Shown piece after piece: positions 3,063 through 18,692 of a DNA stretch of 24,000 nucleotides. The stretch comes from Patescibacteria group bacterium (GTDB lineage Bacteria; Patescibacteriota; Minisyncoccia; Portnoybacterales; GWB1-42-6). The notes under the pieces are model-generated. The model saw nothing but the letters and a program-made list of their open reading frames with translations. It had not been told where the DNA came from and did no database searches. The DNA is taken from the NCBI GenBank assembly GCA_018818145.1, contig JAHIST010000036.1, positions 6,103 to 30,102 of the forward strand. Direction: 5' to 3'. Positions within the stretch are counted from its first letter, which is position 1. Every line of letters starts with the position of its first letter. The position numbers and the translations under genes are program-made.

Positions 3063-3905
3063 TTATAATGCTACTTTCCGGTGAATATTCTGAAGTGCCT
3101 CACGGGCTTTTTCTGCTTTCTGCTTCTTTTCTTTTTGCTCTATCTTCTCGTCTAAGATTTGCTCAATTCCTATCTTAACGGCTTGAAAATATTTAAGACA
3201 CTCCTCTTCCTCAAGATCATGAATGCCCTTACTTAATATTGAATAAAGATTTTTATTTTCAACCAAAAATTCCGGTAAAAAGACTTTTAATAAAATAATT
3301 TTTTCGTCCATTCTACCTTTTAAATAATTCTCTTCTGAAAAAGCTGGATCTTTTTTAACCTCTGTGTGCGCCTCTTCTATTAGATTTTCAAAAATTCTTC
3401 GTAGATAGACGAACGAACCGATACCAACACCATGAGCGTTCAAGCCAATTCCTCTGGTAAATTCTTTATATTGATCCTCTCCTAATTCTTTTCTATATTT
3501 TTCCGCTTGAGGAATTTGAAAGTCAGCTACTGATGGGAATTGACCCATTTTTACAAAAAAACCATCTCCCTTATAGTAATAACTATAATATTCGTGACCA
3601 CTGTTTCTAGTGCATCGATAAACGGTTCTATCGAAACCTATAGATTTTTTCCACTCAGAAAAAATAGTACGATTGAGATACTCTACCGTATCAAAAACGC
3701 TCTCCTTCCCACACTTTATACAATATATATCAATTGTTCCAGAATAACACAAAAGGTCATATATTTTTCTGCATTGGCTGCCAACACTTAAGTCCAGCTC
3801 ATGATAAAGTGGCATTTCTAATATGAACTCTCTGGGAGAGTTTAAATATGGATCATTTTGTATCTCCTGCTCTTCAGGCATTTTTTTAGAAATAGGTTCT
3901 CGCAT
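3063..3905 (-). CDS. hypothetical protein with N-terminal Cys/His zinc-ribbon-like segment and C-terminal helical domain
   Basis: 280-aa ORF with an ATG start in a visibly AT-rich segment. It carries CIKCGKE...YRCTRNSGHEY. The C-terminal part (LSKGIHDLEEEEC context) loosely resembles DUF4145-type helical domains, recalled from memory only. Confidence 0.6.
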   Translation of the reverse strand: MREPISKKMPEEQEIQNDPYLNSPREFILEMPLYHELDLSVGSQCRKIYDLLCYSGTIDIYCIKCGKESVFDTVEYLNRTIFSEWKKSIGFDRTVYRCTRNSGHEYYSYYYKGDGFFVKMGQFPSVADFQIPQAEKYRKELGEDQYKEFTRGIGLNAHGVGIGSFVYLRRIFENLIEEAHTEVKKDPAFSEENYLKGRMDEKIILLKVFLPEFLVENKNLYSILSKGIHDLEEEECLKYFQAVKIGIEQILDEKIEQKEKKQKAEKAREALQNIHRKVAL

Positions 3906-3949: not shown

Positions 3950-4318
3950 TTATTTTAAAGGTATGCTCTTTTTTGTAAATGCATCTACTATCAAATGAAA
4001 AACATAACCAACAAAAAATGAACCGGCATATAAAATATACTCCGACCTAAATAAATATGCCCATATAACCGCCAACAAGCTAGTTGCGATGACCAATATC
4101 AATAATAATCTTACACTATGGAAAAATTTGCGGTGGGCAAAGCTATGAAGAGAAACTGGCTCTATGAGGTCTGGAAATATACCACCAAGGATAATAAAAA
4201 TACTGGATAAAAGAAATTGCCATTGTCCCGATAAGGGCAGTTTCCAAACGCTAAAAATAATATAAACCCCCACGACAACAATTAATGATATGTTTGTATG
4301 GGTTTTCCTACTGGGCAT
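3950..4318 (-). CDS. membrane-bound metal-dependent hydrolase-like protein (DUF457/YdjM-like)
   Basis: 122-aa ORF with about 3-4 hydrophobic helices. His/Asp motifs FPDLIEP, HRKFFHS and HLIVDAFTK are typical of the YdjM/DUF457 family. Confidence 0.6.
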   Translation of the reverse strand: MPSRKTHTNISLIVVVGVYIIFSVWKLPLSGQWQFLLSSIFIILGGIFPDLIEPVSLHSFAHRKFFHSVRLLLILVIATSLLAVIWAYLFRSEYILYAGSFFVGYVFHLIVDAFTKKSIPLK

Positions 4319-4342
4319 TTCTTTTTAAAAGTTATTCCTAGA

Positions 4343-4567
4343 TTATTTTTCAAAGCCATGCATTATTAAACAATTATTGTACATAAAATCAAACTCTGCC
4401 CTTCTTTCGGCTTCAGTGCCGGAAGATATATTAAAACGATTTGCAGTTACAGAATTATAGCAGTTTTGCCTTATATGCATTGGTACATATATATACAAAT
4501 AAAAAAATACTATAATAGCTAAAATAATTAGAAGTTTAAACCAATTTTCTTTTAAAAAGTTTTTCAT
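4343..4567 (-). CDS. small single-pass membrane protein, hypothetical
   Basis: The ATG at 4567-4565 is preceded by GGAGGA about 9 nt upstream; the track's start at 4585 is a TTG. It has one hydrophobic helix (KLLIILAIIVFFYLYIYVP). It begins 5 nt after the stop of the AbrB-like gene. Confidence 0.5.
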   Translation of the reverse strand: MKNFLKENWFKLLIILAIIVFFYLYIYVPMHIRQNCYNSVTANRFNISSGTEAERRAEFDFMYNNCLIMHGFEK

Positions 4568-4572
4568 TTTCT

Positions 4573-4755
4573 CTATTTCCTCCAATCCCTAATCACAATC
4601 CCGCCGCGGGTGCGTTTGGCCACGACTTTCTGGTGCTCTTGCCAGCCCAGCGCCAAAACCATTTCTTTTGGCAAAGTCAGCCCTAAGCTGCCGCCGGCGC
4701 GGCCCATCCGAGTTAGCTTTCTGATGTTTTTATTCTTCAGTGAAGTTCTTGGCAT
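4573..4755 (-). CDS. AbrB/MazE/SpoVT-family DNA-binding protein (antitoxin-like regulator)
   Basis: 60-aa ORF. RKLTRMGRAGGSLGLTLPKEMVLALGW matches the swapped-hairpin SpoVT/AbrB fold signature. It sits directly downstream of a triple 10-bp repeat. Confidence 0.7.
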   Translation of the reverse strand: MPRTSLKNKNIRKLTRMGRAGGSLGLTLPKEMVLALGWQEHQKVVAKRTRGGIVIRDWRK

Positions 4756-4760
4756 AAAAA

Positions 4761-4798
4761 GTGTTACTTAACTTGTTACGTAACATGTTACTTAACAC
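4761..4798. promoter_or_regulatory. triple operator-like repeat GTTACNTAAC x3 with 12-bp phasing
   Basis: GT-GTTACTTAAC-TT-GTTACGTAAC-AT-GTTACTTAAC-AC. The central unit is a perfect palindrome. The array ends 5 nt from the ATG of the AbrB-like gene. Confidence 0.5.
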
Positions 4799-4806
4799 TC
4801 AATAAG

Positions 4807-4880
4807 TGGCAGGGGCGGAGGGAGTCGGACCCCCGTTATTCGTTTTGGAGACGAATGTAATACCGTTATACCACGCCCCC
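4807..4880 (-). tRNA. trnW: tRNA-Trp(CCA), CCA end encoded
   Basis: Hand-folded cloverleaf: acceptor GGGGGCG/CGCCCCU, anticodon arm UUCGU-CUCCAAA-ACGAA, T arm GGGGG-UCCGACU-CCCUC, 3' GCCA. Confidence 0.93.
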
Positions 4881-4898
4881 GTGCCGCCTCTTTGAGGC

Positions 4899-5040
4899 GG
4901 AATTTCTAAATCCTAATTTCTAAACCAGTCCCGCCCGCTTCGCCATAGCTTCCCGCCAGAGGCGAGGCTCGCAAAAGGCGGCAGCGAGGCGAGCGCAGCG
5001 GGACATTATTGAAAATTGGAAATTTGAAATTGGAAATTCC
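4899..5040. repeat. MITE-like element: GC-rich palindromic core flanked by imperfect AT-rich terminal inverted repeats
   Basis: The left end GGAATTTCTAAATCCTAATTTCTAAA and the reverse complement of the right end GGAATTTCCAATTTCAAATTTCCAAT match at 19 of 26 positions. The core has GTCCCGC...GCGGGAC arms and the module CCGCC-AGA-GGCGAGGCTCGC-AAAA-GGCGGCAGC, which is also found inside the tRNA-Thr locus. Confidence 0.5.
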
Positions 5041-5049
5041 ACAAAGAAA

Positions 5050-5208
5050 CTACTTCTTAGTCTCTTTGTGGGTTGTGTGCTTTTTACACCACTTACAGAA
5101 TTTTTTAATCTCAATTTTACGCTCTACTTTGCGCTTGTTTTTGCGCGACCAGTAATTGATGCGCTTACAAATCGCGCACTTAAGTTTTATTAGATTGTCT
5201 TGAGACAT
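5050..5208 (-). CDS. rpmG: 50S ribosomal protein L33 (zinc-ribbon type)
   Basis: My translation gives a 52-aa ORF below the track's length cutoff: MSQDNLIKLKCAICKRINYWSRKNKRKVERKIEIKKFCKWCKKHTTHKETKK. It has the CxxC...CxxC pattern and the L33 signature. tRNA-Trp lies downstream. Confidence 0.9.
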   Translation of the reverse strand: MSQDNLIKLKCAICKRINYWSRKNKRKVERKIEIKKFCKWCKKHTTHKETKK

Positions 5209-5220
5209 ATTATTTTTATT

Positions 5221-5301
5221 CGTCATTGCGAGAAGCGAAGCGACGAAGCAATCTCGTGGTATTCCACGGGATCCTTCGGCGCTTTGCGCCTCAGGATGAC
5301 G
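5221..5301. repeat. GC-rich palindromic intergenic repeat (CGTCATTGCGAG ... CCTCAGGATGACG type)
   Basis: The ends CGTCAT/ATGACG are inverted, with internal GAAGCGAAGCGACGAAGC and GGATCC. Its architecture relates to the GTCATT...AATGAC elements at 19893 and 20823. The track ORFs across it are artefacts. Confidence 0.6.
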
Positions 5302-5308
5302 CTTTGCG

Positions 5309-5836
5309 TCAGTTTTTCTTTTCCCAGCTCTTTAAGCTATCATCAAATTCGTATAAATCCAAATTTTTGCCAAACTGCGTGTCCTGGCCGTTTTTCAAAG
5401 TCCATTGCGATTCTCCGGGCTCAAAATAAGCGATGACTTCGTAACTAAGTCCGGTCTCTTTTTCCTGCGCTTCCAGCAAAACCCGCCGCATGATATGGCC
5501 GTCTTCATACTCAACATAAAAGTTGCTATCGGAGCCGATGACGAACCAAAACCGGTCAACAAACCAATGGCCGCCCAGAACGGGCTGGGCCGGCGAAATT
5601 TCGCCTATCATTTGCGCCACGTCTTCCATTATTATATCTCGCTCCGTTTTTACTCTAGGCGTTCCGCTGGTTTCCGACGGCGTCGGTGAAACCGTGATTG
5701 TGGGCGAAGCCACCTCAACCGTACCTTGCCAAGGCCAGCGCTGATAGATTTGCTGATACAAAACCATCGCGCCTGCCAAAACGGCAAGCAAAACCAGTAA
5801 AATTATGAATTGTTTTTTGGTAAACCCCCACGCCAT
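5309..5836 (-). CDS. hypothetical membrane-anchored protein
   Basis: 175-aa ORF with an ATG start. It has an N-terminal hydrophobic helix (IILLVLLAVLAGAMVLY), then a Pro/Thr/Ser linker and a globular domain. I recognise no family. Confidence 0.6.
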   Translation of the reverse strand: MAWGFTKKQFIILLVLLAVLAGAMVLYQQIYQRWPWQGTVEVASPTITVSPTPSETSGTPRVKTERDIIMEDVAQMIGEISPAQPVLGGHWFVDRFWFVIGSDSNFYVEYEDGHIMRRVLLEAQEKETGLSYEVIAYFEPGESQWTLKNGQDTQFGKNLDLYEFDDSLKSWEKKN

Positions 5837-5935
5837 AATAATGTTTTATTTTAACAAATTATTATTAAACTTCTTACTTTCTAAGCATTTACCCGCTGCC
5901 ACCGTTTTTTGGTGTGGGGGTAAACATAATTTTTG

Positions 5936-6188
5936 AGCCGTTGGCCAGAATCGAACTGGCGACCTACTCCTTCATTTGCACCTCTTTTTTTGTTCGCCTA
6001 TAAGAGGATTAGACTGTATCTTCTCCGAAAATATTCGGAGCCCTTGTCAGTCGTTCGAGCGCCTTTTAGGCGCTACGGTCTTGACCAAGCCAGGCCTTTA
6101 ACCGTAATTCGGGATTCATAATGAGATTGCTCTCATGATGGGCAGAATCTCTACCATGGAGTTGCTCTACCGGCTGAGCTACAACGGC
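5936..6188 (-). tRNA. trnT: tRNA-Thr(GGU) interrupted by a 180-nt intron in the anticodon loop
   Basis: The 5' exon is GCCGUUG-UA-GCUC-AGCCGGUA-GAGC-A-ACUCC-AUGGU (6188-6153). The 3' exon is AA-GGAGU-AGGUC-GCCAG-UUCGAUU-CUGGC-CAACGGC-U (5972-5936). All stems pair perfectly. The spliced loop AUGGUAA gives anticodon GGU. Confidence 0.85.
5973..6152 (-). ncRNA. group-I-like intron within tRNA-Thr(GGU)
   Basis: The 5' exon ends in U and the intron ends in G. Hand-fold elements:
- IGS-like GCCCAU pairing with exon AUGGU
- P2-like AUGAGA-GCAA-UCUCAU with a GNRA loop
- P4/P5-like UACGGU-UAAA-GGCC...GGUC-AA-ACCGUA
- P6-like GCGCC-UAAAA-GGCGC
- P7-like GACUG/CAGUC flanking a P8-like CUCCGAA/UUCGGAG hairpin and an A-rich J8/7
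- P9-like CCUCUU/AAGAGG
P3 was not resolved by hand. Confidence 0.65.
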
Positions 6189-6855: not shown

Positions 6856-7887
6856 TTAACTCTCTGGATACGCTTCTTTTATCAAATTTTGCTTGTCTTT
6901 AAAATATTCGCGCACGGGTTTCAAAATTTCCGCAATTTCGCACGCTACGGTTTTTTTCAAATCCTGCGGATGCAATTTTTTGGCCAAAAAATCTTTTTCC
7001 AAATCAGTATAAGTTTTGTATTCAATATTGCCGCCGAATTTTTCCGGCCGCTCAACGGAGAACAGTTCTCCGTTATCTTCTTTCAAAACCGTCAAAACAT
7101 ATTTCACAAAAGCCATTATGCCGTTGTCCGTTAAATCCCCTTCCGGACAATAGGCTTTGTTAATTTTAGCGGTAATATCAGCCTCGCTGTCAAGCAAATC
7201 AATTTTTGAACTGGGGTCGGAAGCACTCATTTTCCCGCCCATAATTCCGGGCAGCATCGGCGTCATAATTTCCACGCGCTTTTTTTGTCCAATTTTTGGA
7301 TGCGACTCGCGCGCAAAACCAAAAATTTTTCGCTGGTCAGTGCCGCCGTATTGAATATCCGCTCCTAAATATTCTTCGTCAAGCGTCTGTAAAATTGGAT
7401 ATAAAAATCCGCTCAATTTGGGATTTTCGCCAAATTTGACGACTTCCGCAGCCGCGTGTTTGGCGCGGTCAGCGCTGGTTAAGGCCGCCAACCGATAAAC
7501 ATCCAGCGTATATTTTTTATCCAGCTCAAAATCAGAGCCTTTTACAAATTCAATTTTTGAAACATCAACGCCAATAGCCCCATAAAGTTCGGCTAGCTCT
7601 ATTTTGTAAAATTCAACTCGCTTATCCAAAAGCTCAAAGGGTGTCTTCGTATTATCCAAATGGGCGTGAATGTCGGCCAGAAGAATTTTCACGCGCAAAC
7701 CGGCGTCCACAAAATCCTTAATTTTTATCGCCGGAATCATATAGCCGATGTGCGGCCGACCGGTGGGCGCGTAGCCTAAATAAACCACCGGCTCTTTTTT
7801 GGTTTTTAAAAGTTCCGCCAACTCTTCCTCCGTCAAAATCTCTTCAGTGTTGCGTTTGATTAAATTTAGTTTTTGTTCAATCGTCAT
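6856..7887 (-). CDS. tyrS: tyrosyl-tRNA synthetase, archaeal/eukaryotic-type (short form without S4-like C-terminal domain)
   Basis: 343-aa ORF, collinear with my recollection of M. jannaschii TyrRS: LIKRNTEEILTEEEL, PTGRPHIGY (HIGH), LLADIHAHL, YTLDVYRLA, YPILQ, KMSAS (KMSKS), KAYCP, RPEKFGGNIEY, LHPQDLK. Confidence 0.93.
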   Translation of the reverse strand: MTIEQKLNLIKRNTEEILTEEELAELLKTKKEPVVYLGYAPTGRPHIGYMIPAIKIKDFVDAGLRVKILLADIHAHLDNTKTPFELLDKRVEFYKIELAELYGAIGVDVSKIEFVKGSDFELDKKYTLDVYRLAALTSADRAKHAAAEVVKFGENPKLSGFLYPILQTLDEEYLGADIQYGGTDQRKIFGFARESHPKIGQKKRVEIMTPMLPGIMGGKMSASDPSSKIDLLDSEADITAKINKAYCPEGDLTDNGIMAFVKYVLTVLKEDNGELFSVERPEKFGGNIEYKTYTDLEKDFLAKKLHPQDLKKTVACEIAEILKPVREYFKDKQNLIKEAYPES

Positions 7888-9239: not shown

Positions 9240-9788
9240 TTAATGGGGCAGATTAGCAATAAGACTGGTAAATATGGGATGTTGGCTTAAAAATTTATAT
9301 TCCAGCAATTTGTTCACGATAAAAAAATCTTTGATTTCCGAGGACAGCTCTTTGGGTCCGGTGAATAAATCTTGGGCTTGTTTTATCGAATCCTTAAAAT
9401 ATTCGCTCAAACTCTCAGTATCCACTTTTTGTTCCAAATAATTAATTATTTTTTTGAATTCTCCTCTGTCCAGCCATACCCCGTGACAGGAATTACAGAC
9501 GTCTACTTGAATATCTGATTTATTATAATTAACTTGATATAGATTTTTATCGCAAACCGGACAAATCTTTCCTGAAAAAACAACCTTAAAGCCTTCTTTG
9601 TTTTTCCAAAGGTCAATATCAAGCCATTCTAAAAATTTATCCTCCTCGGCTACCGTCTTACTCAATTCATCGCGATTAAACCAAAGTCCTTGACATTGGT
9701 CGCACCTGGCGACTTTAGTTTTATGAAATGCAATCTGCCTTAAACTATCACTTTTACAATTTGGACAAACCAAAATATTTTTTTCCAT
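9240..9788 (-). CDS. tandem zinc-ribbon protein (TFIIB-type zf domain x2), hypothetical
   Basis: 182-aa ORF with an ATG start. It has two CPxC...C(D/N)xC(Q/H)G(L/V)W(F/L)(N/D)R modules (CPNCKS..CDQCQGLWFNRDE and CPVCDK..CNSCHGVWLDRGE). Confidence 0.7.
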   Translation of the reverse strand: MEKNILVCPNCKSDSLRQIAFHKTKVARCDQCQGLWFNRDELSKTVAEEDKFLEWLDIDLWKNKEGFKVVFSGKICPVCDKNLYQVNYNKSDIQVDVCNSCHGVWLDRGEFKKIINYLEQKVDTESLSEYFKDSIKQAQDLFTGPKELSSEIKDFFIVNKLLEYKFLSQHPIFTSLIANLPH

Positions 9789-9834
9789 ATGAAGGATTCC
9801 TTTTTTATTATAATTTATTTCTTAACTTACGAGG

Positions 9835-9907
9835 TCCAGGGGGTAGGAGTCGAACCTACCTGAAACGGTTTTACAGACCGCCGCATCGACCGCTCTGCCA
9901 CCCCTGG
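9835..9907 (-). tRNA. trnY: tRNA-Tyr(GUA) with C1-G72, A73 and a 5-nt variable loop (archaeal/eukaryal-like architecture)
   Basis: Fold: CCAGGGG-UG-GCAG-AGCGGUCG-AUGC-G-GCGGU-CUGUAAA-ACCGU-UUCAG-GUAGG-UUCGACU-CCUAC-CCCCUGG-A. It lacks the long variable arm that typifies bacterial tRNA-Tyr. Confidence 0.9.
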
Positions 9908-9952
9908 GTCTAAATAACCAGTATGTGCAAGAGTCGCCCCGCAGCAGCGGGG

Positions 9953-10029
9953 TTACAGACCGCCGCATCGACCGCTCTGCTTGCCTCGCCGAAGTCCCGC
10001 AGACGGGACGAAGGCGGGCCACCTCCTGG
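9953..10029 (-). pseudogene. partial 5'-half copy of tRNA-Tyr carrying a ~40-nt GC-rich hairpin insertion in the D-stem
   Basis: A 28-nt perfect direct repeat (9953-9980 = 9871-9898) covers the D-arm through anticodon-loop nt 37. The upstream acceptor-like CCAGGAGG-UG-GC is followed by the insertion CCGCCUUC-GUCCCGUCUGCGGGAC-UUCGGCGAGGC. The copy stops after CUGUAA and has no T arm or 3' acceptor. Confidence 0.6.
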
Positions 10030-10081
10030 CTATTATAATTCTTAATAAAATTCTACCATCTTTTACATATAAGTCCAGTCT

Positions 10082-10106
10082 AAACAAAAATACGGCTTAC
10101 TCAGCC
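10082..10106 (-). terminator. terminator-like hairpin between the Thr cluster and the Tyr cluster
   Basis: Minus strand reads GGCU-GAGUA-AGCC followed by GUAUUUUUGUUU. Confidence 0.4.
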
Positions 10107-10173
10107 ATATCAACGAAGAGCCAGCGGCCCCGCTAAGCGGGGCGACCTATTTACCCCGTTACATTCGTTGAAG

Positions 10174-10403
10174 AGCCGAGGGCGAGATTCGAACTCGCGG
10201 CCAGCGGTTTACAAAACCGCTGCTCTACTTCACCCCGCCATCTTTTATCTAGAGCCACCTCTCGGGCTCGAACCGAGAACCTGATGCTTACAAAGCAACT
10301 GCTCTGCCAATTGAGCTAAGGTGGCAAAAGATGGCGGGGCAAGCTGCCGCCCCGACACGACGTCGGGGCGAGCCTCGCCCTTTTGGGCGGGAGCTACCTC
10401 GGC
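10174..10403 (-). pseudogene. interrupted (split or intron-containing) tRNA-Thr(UGU): a 13-nt 5' piece and a 59-nt 3' piece separated by a 158-nt D-loop insertion
   Basis: The 5' piece is GCCGAGG-UA-GCUC (10403-10391). The 3' piece is UGAAGUA-GAGC-A-GCGGU-UUUGUAA-ACCGC-UGGCC-GCGAG-UUCGAAU-CUCGC-CCUCGGC-U (10232-10174). The acceptor, D, anticodon and T stems would all pair perfectly once the insertion is ignored. Confidence 0.5.
10253..10325 (-). tRNA. trnT: tRNA-Thr(UGU), intact, embedded in the insertion of the interrupted tRNA-Thr(UGU)
   Basis: Fold: GCCACCU-UA-GCUC-AAUUGGCA-GAGC-A-GUUGC-UUUGUAA-GCAUC-AGGUU-CUCGG-UUCGAGC-CCGAG-AGGUGGC-U. There is one U-U mismatch in the anticodon stem. Confidence 0.93.
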
Positions 10404-10420
10404 AAATGTAACGGGGCGGG

Positions 10421-10446
10421 CAAAACCGTTGCTCTGCCATTGAGTC
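10421..10446 (-). pseudogene. third tRNA-Thr(UGU)-like fragment (D-arm to anticodon nt 35)
   Basis: GACUCAAUGGCAGAGCAACGGUUUUG resembles the D-arm of the intact copy and the anticodon stem of the interrupted copy. It has no acceptor or 3' half. Confidence 0.4.
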
Positions 10447-10580
10447 CCGAAAATTACAAAATCTAAGATTTTGATAATTTTCGAGGATCCTCGACAATTC
10501 TAAAAATCAAAGATTTTCGAATTGTCGAGACTACGCTGGCACATAGGTGTGAGATTCTATTTGGGCCACTCCTAAAAAGA

Positions 10581-11369
10581 CTAAGTAGCGCCTTGCTGTT
10601 TCTTTGCTCTCAACCCCTTAATCTCATTCAATTTATTTTTTACTTCTTCATCCTGCGGATTTAATTTGAGCGCCCTTCTGAAACAGGCTCGCGCGTCGCT
10701 ATAATTTTTTTGATTAAGATATAAAAATCCCAGCGCCCGATACGCATCAACATCTTTGTGATTCTCGGCGATGCGATCAATGTGTTTTTTTTCTTCTTCG
10801 GTTACGGCTGTATTTTCTACGGCGGGCGAAACAACATTCGCCTCGCTATTTAAAATTTCTGGCTGAACCAATGGAATTACTTCGGCCGTCTCGCCATTTA
10901 CCATCGCTTCAATTTTTTCTTTTAAAGCATTATCCTCTTCTTTGGCCACTTCCTGTTTAATTTTTTCCAAAGTTTCTGAAACCTCCACTTTATCAAGCCT
11001 TTCTAAAACCTGCAGTTTTTCTCTTTTTTTCAACCGCCGGTGCTCGCTCCAGGCGTGAGACCTGATCTTCCAAACTTGCGACTTTTCCCTTGATCGTTTA
11101 ATCAGCCCGACAAAAAAATTATCTATTTTTAAAATAAAAAGTCTCAATCTGCGAAGGCTTTTCTCAAGCGACTCCAAGACCAACGGCCGATAGGTTGAAT
11201 ACCTCAACGCCTTAATTTTGTTTTTTATTCCTTCAGCCAGGCTCGTTTGCGGCAAAGTCGGAAATTCCTCTGTTTTAACAAGCGTGGGGATTTTTCTCGC
11301 TATCATAAAAACCACCCCCGCAAAACCGCCGATAGCCAAAATTAAACCGACTATTGTCACCAAAGACAT
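10581..11369 (-). CDS. membrane-anchored protein with C-terminal TPR-like repeat, hypothetical
   Basis: 262-aa ORF with an ATG start. It has an N-terminal TM helix (VTIVGLILAIGGFAGVVFMIA), a charged coiled-coil-like middle, and a C-terminal TPR-like motif (AYRALGFLYLNQKNYSDARACFRRALKLNPQD). Confidence 0.7.
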   Translation of the reverse strand: MSLVTIVGLILAIGGFAGVVFMIARKIPTLVKTEEFPTLPQTSLAEGIKNKIKALRYSTYRPLVLESLEKSLRRLRLFILKIDNFFVGLIKRSREKSQVWKIRSHAWSEHRRLKKREKLQVLERLDKVEVSETLEKIKQEVAKEEDNALKEKIEAMVNGETAEVIPLVQPEILNSEANVVSPAVENTAVTEEEKKHIDRIAENHKDVDAYRALGFLYLNQKNYSDARACFRRALKLNPQDEEVKNKLNEIKGLRAKKQQGAT

Positions 11370-11904: not shown

Positions 11905-12660
11905 CTAACTCTCTTTATTTTTCTTTTCTACGTCAACAACCGCCACCGGCTTCACCTCTTTTAAATTATTAACGATTGTTTCAACCAAAAGCTTGAGAGC
12001 GGAAGAAGCATCGTCATTGGCCGAAATAACATAGTCAACCATTGAAGGGTCGGCATTGGAATCACAAATAGCCGCTACCGGAATGTTTATCCTTTTGGCC
12101 TCTCTTATGGCCAAATTGTCTACTTTAACATCAATTACAAAAATGGCATTTGGCAATTTAACCAGATTTTTAATGCCTTCGAGCTGCCCGTGCAGTTTTG
12201 TCAGACGCTTTTGCAGCTGACCTCGTTCTTTTTTGGTATATTTTTCCCAGCCGCCGGTTTTTTGCTGTTCTTCAAGGTCTCGATAATACTGCAGCCGCTT
12301 GGTGATGGTTTTAAAATTTGTCAAAGTTCCGCCCAGCCAGCGCTCCGAAACATAGGGCCAGCCGAGGGTTTGTCCGGCCTGTTTAATAATGTTTTTAGCC
12401 GCTGGCTTTGTTCCTACCAGTAAAACCGTTCCGCCCCGCTGCAAGACAGAACGCATAAAAATTAAAGCCTCTTCAAGTTTTTTAGCGGTCTTTTCCAGGT
12501 CAAAAATGTGGACATCGGCTTTGGCCGTAAAGATATAGCGCTCCATTTTGGGATGCCAACGGGAAGTTTTGTGCCCAAAATGAACACCCGCCTCAAGCAT
12601 TTCCTGCGCCGACGGCAATCTCAATTCACCCTCCGTTTTGGTATTTTTTTCGTCAGTCAT
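11905..12660 (-). CDS. rpsB: 30S ribosomal protein S2
   Basis: MLEAGVHFGHKTSRWHPKM and downstream S2 signatures. I prefer the ATG at 12660, because the track's start at 12693 lies inside the predicted promoter spacer and -10 element. Confidence 0.93.
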   Translation of the reverse strand: MTDEKNTKTEGELRLPSAQEMLEAGVHFGHKTSRWHPKMERYIFTAKADVHIFDLEKTAKKLEEALIFMRSVLQRGGTVLLVGTKPAAKNIIKQAGQTLGWPYVSERWLGGTLTNFKTITKRLQYYRDLEEQQKTGGWEKYTKKERGQLQKRLTKLHGQLEGIKNLVKLPNAIFVIDVKVDNLAIREAKRINIPVAAICDSNADPSMVDYVISANDDASSALKLLVETIVNNLKEVKPVAVVDVEKKNKES

Positions 12661-18653: not shown

Positions 18654-18692
18654 CTCGCCCCGTTAGATTTGAAAATTATCTAACGGGGCGAG
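18654..18692. repeat. perfect 15-bp-stem hairpin repeat CTCGCCCCGTTAGAT / ATCTAACGGGGCGAG
   Basis: The arms lie at 18654-18668 and 18678-18692 with a 9-nt loop. It shares the 10-mer TAACGGGGCG with the outer bracket of the tRNA-Thr locus (10407-10418). Confidence 0.65.

Follow-up and report, generated by a model that had tools for sequence, protein, structure and literature searches.

How does a complete tRNA gene come to lie inside a second tRNA gene of the same specificity, and does the interrupted gene still work? The question is raised by a locus on the minus strand of a 24,000-nt stretch of DNA (the window, to which coordinates refer unless a relative is named) that covers positions 6,103 to 30,102 of contig JAHIST010000036.1 in the Patescibacteria group bacterium assembly GCA_018818145.1. 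Three tRNA-Thr(UGU) genes are nested there one in another (10540-10119), and a first-pass annotation of the same DNA had offered three readings: serial insertion of tRNA-carrying hairpin elements that each replace the resident tRNA-Thr, a functional split or intron-containing tRNA, or an assembly chimera. We favor the first, in the form of repeated insertion of cassettes that have terminal inverted repeats and replace the resident gene; on this view only the innermost gene would work and the cassettes would be non-autonomous relatives of a small element encoding a GIY-YIG nuclease; we give this reading a probability of about 0.65. By cassette we mean a complete tRNA-Thr(UGU) gene together with a 12-17-bp terminal inverted repeat, one arm of which abuts the 5′ end of the gene while the other lies 5-8 nt past its 3′ end.

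The host is a bacterium: the window encodes EF-Ts, S2, a class-I release factor (RF-1/2 family), L25, and UppS, and the TPR protein encoded next to the nest carries the NCBI name ‘Patescibacteria group bacterium’, with relatives in Candidatus Portnoybacteria and Parcubacteria. Related loci were gathered through an alignment of homologs of this TPR protein (which yielded 9 loci in GTDB genomes and 40 in JGI metagenomes, supplemented by exact-protein look-ups; L numbers denote the fetched contigs or loci); scans of the GTDB genomes and JGI metagenomes with the single TPR protein returned no relatives, and the alignment query alone worked. Split tRNAs were detected as a T-arm hairpin combined with a 7-bp acceptor pair, over a span of at most 1.5 kb, followed by a regex-based parse.

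Anatomy of a threefold nested tRNA-Thr locus

The innermost gene (layer 1, 10325-10253) is an intact tRNA-Thr(UGU), as the first-pass annotation had proposed: ARAGORN calls it tRNA-Thr(tgt), it scores as a canonical tRNA with Rfam (63.2 bits against the RF00005 gathering threshold of 29 bits), and 73 of its 73 nucleotides match the stand-alone tRNA-Thr of two relatives (L007 and L008). It is preceded by the junction sequence AGCTTG and the left cassette arm CCCCGCCATCTTTT (10345-10326 together, the arm being 10339-10326), and followed by the spacer CTAGAT and the right arm AAAAGATGGCGGGG (10252-10233 together, the arm being 10246-10233), which matches the left arm as an inverted repeat of 14 nt with 100% complementarity. 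The elements that the annotation had listed around this gene were likewise all present on the minus strand where it had placed them, including both pairs of GC-rich arms, the second of which is described below.

The layer-1 cassette interrupts a second tRNA-Thr(UGU) (layer 2) in its D-loop. Layer 2 is split by 158 nt into a 5′ exon GCCGAGGTAGCTC (10403-10391) and a 3′ exon (10232-10174) that comprises TGAAGTA, the 3′ strand of the D-stem, the anticodon arm (UGU), the T arm, the 3′ strand of the acceptor stem, and the discriminator base. As encoded, layer 2 does not form a contiguous cloverleaf; in the unspliced sequence Rfam scores the 3′ part alone, as a 35-bit partial tRNA (10239-10174) with the D arm skipped. 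When the two exons are joined in silico, ARAGORN calls the product tRNA-Thr(tgt), with a D-loop (TGAAGTA) that lacks the conserved GG. The 158-nt insertion is present as described, but its first 45 nt (10390-10346), 3′ of the D-stem of layer 2, are a separate GC-rich, hairpin-only element (CCGCCC...GGCGGC), of which L024 carries a near-identical copy at the same tRNA position. Layer 2 is itself bracketed by CCCG and the left arm CCCCGTTACATT (10420-10405 together, the arm being 10416-10405) and by the spacer CTTCAACG and the right arm AATGTAACGGGG (10173-10154 together, the arm being 10165-10154); the two 12-nt arms are 100% complementary.

The layer-2 cassette lies in turn in the anticodon loop of a third gene (layer 3), which the first-pass annotation had recorded as a Thr-like fragment ending within the anticodon. 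The fragment does end there, at G35, but it is part of a complete third shell (10540-10119). Its 5′ exon begins with GCCAGCGTAG (10540-10531), comprising the 5′ strand of the acceptor stem, U8, A9, and G10, and continues with CTCAATGGCAGAGCAACGGTTTTG (10444-10421), of which G35 is the last base; between the two, within the D-stem, lies an 86-nt AT-rich double palindrome (10530-10445), also a hairpin-only element, with the termini TCTCG...CGGGA. The 3′ exon is TAAATAGGTCGCCCCGCTTAGCGGGGCCGCTGGCT (10153-10119). The acceptor halves GCCAGCG and CGCTGGC (10126-10120) pair at 7 of 7 positions, the anticodon stem has a shortened 3′ strand, and a 7-bp GC hairpin takes the place of the T arm; the spliced layer 3 is not called as a tRNA. 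The two outer layers are thus each broken up by a hairpin-only insertion (86 and 45 nt) in addition to the cassette that each contains.

A terminator-like hairpin with a T-run (10111-10085) closes the transcription unit, and no promoter-like site was found ahead of the nest on the minus strand. The interval 10119-10540 contains no open reading frame (ORF), and the boundaries of the inserts carry no direct repeats. Folding of the 426-nt nest gives -224 kcal/mol (z = -12.75), with a minimum-energy structure in which the acceptor stem of the shell and the helices of both arm pairs are formed. At E ≤ 1, Rfam matched nothing in the nest inserts other than spurious miRNA-like hits on the AT palindrome.

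An empty site, coexisting alleles, and recurrence across the clade

Comparison of the syntenic locus in relatives, which the first-pass annotation had proposed as a check, revealed an empty site in L003 (NCBI GCA_041643215.1), whose TPR protein is 86% identical to that of the window. L003 carries the layer-2 tRNA uninterrupted (GCCGAGGTAGCTCAGTGGTAGAGC..., 76.5 bits), with the native D-loop AGTGGTA and between the same 12-nt arms as in the window; outside the D-loop, layer 2 of the window is identical to this contiguous gene, including the whole 5′ exon. The layer-2 cassette of L003 is inserted after TTTTG in the anticodon loop of the third shell, which is represented by the 5′ part GCCAGCGTAGCTCAGCTGGTAGAGCAACGGTTTTG and the 3′ part TAAATAGGTCGCCCCGCTTAGCGGGGCCGCTGGCT. 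The AT-rich palindrome is missing from L003, where the two parts of the layer-3 5′ exon are uninterrupted.

The nest is found in separate assemblies. L010 (ENA ERZ27247128 k141_262336) is identical to the window over 7692 of 7692 nucleotides, the whole nest included, and L012 (Logan, run SRR6514274) begins within the inner tRNA and reads through both 3′ junctions, which are identical to those of the window. A second haplotype from the same ENA sample (haplotype B, L001) is identical to the window at 4841 of 4841 upstream positions, and the arrangement diverges from the first base of the AT palindrome on (L001 4842-5121 versus window 10528-10085). L001 retains that palindrome with five single-nucleotide polymorphisms, and beyond it has a cassette with different arms (CCCGCACCTTTT / AAAAGATGCGGG), a different functional tRNA (GCCGAGA..., versus GCCACCT in the window), and a 3′ fragment of another tRNA type. 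Because L001 and the window are identical upstream and differ from the nest on, the tRNA-Thr locus is polymorphic within one otherwise clonal population.

Across the sampled clade, about 25 of some 34 distinct TPR-linked loci have split tRNA-Thr fragments or relics around an intact tRNA-Thr; the remaining nine or so are simple, such as L007. Designated by the first seven nucleotides of each tRNA, a GCCAGCG gene lies inside a GCCACCT gene in L013, L035, and L043, GCCACCT inside GCCACCC in L019, GCCAGCG inside GCCGAAG in L022, and GCCTGAG inside GCCAGCG in L059; L061 has three layers, and L016, the deepest nest found, has four. Nesting occurs in both orders, with GCCAGCG enclosed by GCCACCT in L013 and L035, for example. 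Spliced outer tRNAs that can be called were also obtained from L019, L022, and L035, and those of L013, L016 (layer 2), L059, and L061 were not recognized as tRNAs. Many shells are defective in other ways: L014, L017, L020, and L024 have 5′ fragments without a partner or with a partner of another type, L043 has internal deletions in its shell, L017, L020, and L054 contain hairpin-only insertions as the window does, and L038 and L016, identical over 768 of 768 positions of their TPR genes, differ in the dead shell.

Insertions fall into a few junction types. The A-type lies in the anticodon loop between G35 and T36 (TTTTG / CYYG CCCC...GGGG / TAAA), the D-type lies in the D-loop (GCTCARC TTG / CCCC...GGGG / TGAAGYA GAGC), and in a third type the 5′ anticodon strand is replaced (GAG / TCCCGC...GCGGGA / TAAAC). 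The D-type junction of the window recurs in L016, L020, L024, and L035, and D-type cassettes are flanked by TG..TG. The D-type residues AGCTTG and TGAAGYA are constant across outer tRNA types and unlike native D-loops (AGTGGTA in L003), which suggests that the insertions were transferred by recombination with co-conversion of their flanks, as in homing. Among viral contigs, the D-type junction motif gave chance matches alone, in GC-rich phage coding regions; generic tRNA-Thr patterns gave many matches there, and the split-tRNA scan gave just 500-1000-nt interruptions of a different kind. Within the window, an 8-bp GCCAGCG/CGCTGGC pair in rpsB (12335-12407) proved to be a chance match in ordinary coding sequence.

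Dispersed hairpins and a candidate GIY-YIG partner

Perfect leader-trailer complementarity of 11-17 nt is present in 15 of 33 distinct intact tRNA-Thr units, in at least ten different sequences. When the trailers of the 33 units were shuffled, complementary runs of at least 10 nt were never seen, and non-cognate leader-trailer pairs reached that length in 21 of 1056 comparisons; the arms therefore co-vary. The other 18 of the 33 working tRNA-Thr genes have no such helix, so the tRNA does not need one, and the helix appears to be a property of the cassette rather than a requirement of the tRNA.

The arm families are also found away from interrupted tRNA genes. A unit that combines arms ...CCGyCATCTTTT with a GCCACCT tRNA lies between genes in L018 and L035 and within the tRNA D-loop in the window, and a perfect 15-bp intergenic hairpin in the window (18654-18692; CTCGCCCCGTTAGAT, 9 nt, ATCTAACGGGGCGAG) belongs to the arm family of the layer-2 arms CCCCGTTACATT. 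[quoted passage not shown] Related hairpins without a tRNA are present in other sampled loci as well, and six of about ten MITE-like copies are flanked by 2-bp repeats. The perfect 14-nt and 12-nt arms of the nest are terminal inverted repeats of the kind that characterizes this class.

The MITE-like element at 5824-5921 (flanks AA/AA) lies 14 nt downstream of an intron-bearing tRNA-Thr(GGU) gene (5936-6188, minus strand), which has a 180-nt insert (6152-5973) in its anticodon loop. This gene is overlooked by default ARAGORN and by Rfam and is called with the ARAGORN intron option as tRNA-Thr(ggt) i(37,180). U is the last base of the 5′ exon and G that of the insert, and the insert contains GACTG...(CTCCGAA TATT TTCGGAG) AAGATA CAGTC, which resembles the P7/P8/J8-7 core of group I introns; Rfam Intron_gpI has no match to the insert at E ≤ 1. 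The insert is probably a group I intron of very small size. Elsewhere in the window, a GC-rich multi-hairpin stretch (4882-5022, minus strand) with GTCCCGC...GCGGGAC and CCGCCTC AAA GAGGCGG occupies the leader of tRNA-Trp (4807-4880) and may consist of further hairpin elements.

Small GIY-YIG ORFs (PF01541, E = 1e-12 to 1e-15) lie in the Thr-Tyr locus of three relatives (L019, L020, and L040), and one of those in L040 belongs to a candidate partner for the mobilization of the cassettes. This ORF (element 3458-3749) is enclosed by a perfect 21-bp inverted repeat, GTCCCCACACCTAATCGGCAT, and its homologs, fetched on five contigs (L200/L201 and L203-L205), occupy intergenic sites in four unrelated settings, defined by genes for pilins (two contigs, nearly identical), prepilin peptidase, Mfd, and AbiEii. 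The elements of L200, L203, L204, and L205 lie around positions 1465-1772 of their contigs. All of the elements are enclosed by perfect 15-21-bp repeats (ACCCCCACACCTAATCAGYAT), of which the right one overlaps the stop codon, and all five are flanked by 2-bp direct repeats (CA, TG, TT, CA, and TG). The unit is about 330 bp long, its sole gene encodes an 86-aa GIY-YIG nuclease, and on these features we regard it as a mobile element. Nucleases of the GIY-YIG family make 2-nt staggered cuts, which the 2-bp duplications of the element fit. The core of its repeats, CCCCCACACCT (YCCCC...GGGGR type), forms the arms of the tRNA cassette of L014 (CCCCCACACCTT). Based on this sequence relationship, we infer that the cassettes are mobilized by the GIY-YIG nuclease, as non-autonomous relatives of the ~330-bp element.

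A second type of small GIY-YIG ORF (L019 3680-3955, L020 3796-4071, and L040 3948-4234) is flanked by the intact tRNA-Tyr on one side and by a pseudo-tRNA-Tyr full of hairpins on the other; it weakly resembles group I intron endonucleases, and its ATG start appears to be mutated in L019. In the window, a decayed tRNA-Tyr copy (9937-10029, minus strand; including CCAGGAGGTGGC) lies upstream of the working tRNA-Tyr (9835-9907). It has a 34-nt GC hairpin in its D arm, a 28-nt exact duplicate of the D/anticodon region of tRNA-Tyr, and, past the anticodon, an empty CCCCGC-TGCT-GCGGGG helix. Similar hairpin-bearing 5′ remnants precede tRNA-Tyr in most related loci, so the same kind of turnover would affect tRNA-Tyr. 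Directly downstream of tRNA-Tyr in L020 is the gene for a large serine recombinase with Resolvase, Recombinase, and Zn_ribbon_recom domains (4111-5589, minus strand), which suggests an element integrated at that tRNA. In the working tRNA-Tyr of the window, C1-G72 is accompanied by a variable region of 5 nt (class I), and a class-I synthetase gene (6856-7887) encodes a short tyrosyl-tRNA synthetase of archaeal/eukaryal type (NF006330, 350 bits); together they give this bacterium a tyrosine identity set of archaeal style.

Serial replacement as the probable reading, and its alternatives

In the reading that we favor, a GCCGAGG-type cassette (layer 2) would have entered a resident GCCAGCG-type gene (layer 3) between G35 and T36 of its anticodon loop, in an event common to the window and L003, and a GCCACCT-type cassette (layer 1) would then have landed in the D-loop of the GCCGAGG copy, in the window lineage only. 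Each insertion would have destroyed the resident gene and supplied a substitute, and the inner copy alone would be expected to work for that reason; we presume that only the inner tRNA (10325-10253) is functional. Hairpin-only elements of the same class would later have accumulated in the dead shells. The nest would be transcribed as a single highly structured precursor that ends at the terminator, from which the inner tRNA would be freed by ordinary RNase P and 3′-end processing. Spread to other tRNA-Thr alleles would be homing-like, with a break in the target gene repaired from a nest-bearing donor and the D-loop flanks co-converted. Serial insertion as first proposed is thus upheld by the empty site in L003, by the nests and relics of most related loci, and by the dispersed hairpins of the arm families. 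A bolder and more tentative proposal, possible rather than probable in our judgment, is that the cassettes belong to a new class of selfish element: tRNA-carrying hairpin cassettes moved in trans by the 86-aa GIY-YIG element and homing into the gene of the same isoacceptor.

Several observations weigh against serial replacement or against its proposed mechanism. Comparative sampling was confined to the TPR-linked tRNA-Thr locus and all cassettes were found there, which introduces an ascertainment bias. A-type junctions have no target duplication and carry CYYG, and D-type junctions bear an extra AA; the model accounts for neither. Among the cassettes, the arms of L014 alone match the core of the nuclease repeats exactly, those of the window (CCCCGCCATCTTTT and CCCCGTTACATT) sharing just the YCCCC...GGGGR design with it, and there is no GIY-YIG gene in the 24-kb window. 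The shells are also better conserved than neutral DNA. Identity of the window with L003 is 75% at third codon positions and 65-71% in downstream DNA, yet the layer-3 3′ exon is identical at 35 of 35 positions and the arms with CCCG at 29 of 29 (the right arm at 12 of 12); the 8-nt spacer alone has drifted (5 of 8 identical). The same excess of shell conservation is seen between L016 and L049. The T arm of the outermost shell is kept as a GC hairpin across deep lineages while its loops vary, and the outermost acceptor halves co-vary (GCCAGCG/CGCTGGC versus GCCAGAG/CTCTGGC).

This conservation is also an argument for a composite functional precursor, in which the paired outer halves and the arms, neither tRNA nor junk, are selected as a scaffold that processes or stabilizes the inner tRNA. 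Its leader-trailer helices would resemble rRNA processing stems and would provide entry for RNase III or RNase P, or protection from exonucleases; the co-variation of the arms and the exceptionally stable fold would suit such a role, as would shells that stay intact while their flanks diverge. A scaffold of this kind is difficult to reconcile with the many working tRNA-Thr genes that have no helix and with the nine or so loci that have no shell at all, and shells are lost or damaged between sisters (L017 versus L013, L043 versus L035, and L038 versus L016). Conservation above background is equally predicted by recent horizontal spread of a mobile nest. The shells could be conserved because the nest spread horizontally later than the hosts diverged, or because the shells gained a structural role; we prefer the former, and consider a composite precursor unlikely as an account of the whole locus.

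Less probable is a functional split or intron-containing tRNA, in which RNase P and RNase Z would remove the inner tRNA and the outer halves, held together by the 14-bp helix or ligated, would constitute a second tRNA-Thr(UGU). The proposal draws on the perfect pairing of the layer-2 stems and on spliced products that ARAGORN accepts as tRNA-Thr, in the window as in three relatives. Perfect pairing is explained by recency, however, since the exons equal the contiguous gene of L003 and the allele is polymorphic in the population; as the first-pass annotation had argued, it speaks against an old decayed pseudogene, and the outer halves appear to be young pseudogene shells whose stems still pair. 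In addition, the D-type junction exchanges G18G19 for CTTG...TGAAG, the outermost shell is unrecognizable as a tRNA, the other outer layers are defective or incomplete, with halves that are missing, mismatched, or deleted in relatives, and a second UGU isoacceptor would have no obvious use. Split, tri-split, and permuted tRNAs and non-canonical introns are known from Archaea (Nanoarchaeum, Caldivirga, and Thermoproteales), and resemble the nest in their D-loop and anticodon-loop interruptions and in the GC-rich complementary sequences that join the halves. They differ in that the nest has a bacterial host and no bulge-helix-bulge motif, the ‘intron’ is a full tRNA of the same specificity, and the outer genes decay. 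Archaeal splicing was rejected on inspection of the junctions, which face each other at the terminal pair of a continuous 12-14-bp helix and lack 3-nt bulges 4 bp apart, and an archaeal host, the expected source of a tRNA splicing endonuclease, was rejected on the bacterial proteins of the window and its neighbors named Patescibacteria.

A shade less probable again is that the fragments are remnants of integrase islands or of tandem duplications, later joined by deletions. tRNA genes are classic integration sites, the large serine recombinase adjoins tRNA-Tyr in L020, and a duplicate of the 5′ part of tRNA-Tyr lies upstream of it. Islands leave direct repeats of one tRNA segment, whereas here matched halves enclose complete, different tRNAs within inverted repeats, the inserts measure just 100-160 bp, and the same junction types recur in many lineages; an integrase island at the nest itself was rejected because the insert ends carry no direct repeats and the locus no ORF. 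Finally, a chimera of co-occurring strains with different tRNA-Thr alleles, to which the two alleles in ERZ27247128, the contigs L001 and L002 that end at the locus, and an inner tRNA identical to that of another lineage might point, has a negligible probability, given the identical nest in a separate ENA contig and in part in a Logan contig of another run, the analogous nests in dozens of unrelated assemblies, and the fact that a chimera would neither generate perfect inverted repeats nor continue the outer tRNA in register.

Other recombination systems were considered as sources of the inserts and rejected. For integron attC sites, the order of the GTTRRRY and RYYYAAC boxes is wrong and most arms lack them; for tyrosine recombinases (attB/attP), there is no duplicated 6-8-bp overlap region; for serine recombinases (attB/attP), the TG shared at D-type junctions implies an attB that is not native (D-loop AGCTTGAAGTA) and A-type junctions have no shared dinucleotide; and for IS200/IS605-type elements, subterminal hairpins are absent. 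Group I introns share with the nest an insertion inside a bacterial tRNA gene, of which the tRNA-Thr(GGU) described above (6188-5936) is a likely example. The nest inserts differ in having no ribozyme core and no Rfam Intron_gpI match (E ≤ 1, 9700-10700), one of them lies in a D-loop, and the 5′ exons end in G or C, not U; a group I intron was rejected on these grounds.

Among known systems, the nest works most like a MITE- or REPIN-type hairpin element to which the compensation logic of tRNA-targeting islands, and possibly the homing logic of free-standing GIY-YIG nucleases, has been added. Small palindromic mobile elements include MITEs, repetitive extragenic palindromic (REP) sequences and REPINs, Rickettsia palindromic elements, and mitochondrial GC clusters, and PstI palindromes flank tRNA genes in Neurospora mitochondrial DNA. 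Like these, the cassettes and their relatives are short and non-coding, have hairpin-forming terminal inverted repeats, appear to occur as dispersed empty and cargo-bearing copies, and insert in structured RNA genes, and like the GC palindromes of Neurospora they bracket tRNA genes; unlike them, they carry a complete replacement tRNA and land preferentially in the gene of the same isoacceptor, hence the recursive nesting, and the gene of the candidate partner is for a GIY-YIG nuclease and not for a DDE or HUH transposase. Islands and prophages reportedly integrate into tRNA genes, at attB sites in the anticodon loop or T-loop, and restore them. The nest resembles these in its tRNA target (anticodon loop included), in the compensation of damage by the element, and in the fragments left by repeated events, and differs in its inserts of 100-160 bp without an integrase, its inverted rather than direct repeats, and its delivery of a whole, different tRNA with the old gene left as two halves around the new. 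Free-standing GIY-YIG homing endonucleases occur near tRNA genes, as does SegB in the tRNA cluster of phage T4. The parallels are a nuclease linked to tRNA genes, break repair with co-conversion, and a resistant allele that travels with the element; here the nuclease is a bare 86-aa domain within terminal inverted repeats and 2-bp duplications, and the nest of the window has no nuclease gene.

Literature searches turned up no account of one tRNA gene nested in another in bacteria, nor of GIY-YIG mini-elements bounded by terminal inverted repeats, and we know of no other tRNA-targeting element that compensates its damage by bringing a whole replacement tRNA. If the favored reading is correct, an essential single-copy tRNA gene has been overwritten repeatedly from within by mobile cassettes that bear their own replacement. 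On the bolder proposal of a selfish element, the turnover of this gene would be gene-drive-like, with the cell made dependent on the cassette and several divergent tRNA-Thr alleles present per population; that two strains identical over 4.8 kb have quite different tRNA-Thr(UGU) genes points to rapid allele exchange or to selection on the tRNA gene. The nest would also constitute a natural experiment on how far structured-RNA genes tolerate insertion, and would suggest a function for the widespread stand-alone GIY-YIG proteins. For the candidate phyla radiation (CPR), turnover of this kind would explain the tRNA fragments and the ‘missing’ or odd tRNAs of genome annotations.

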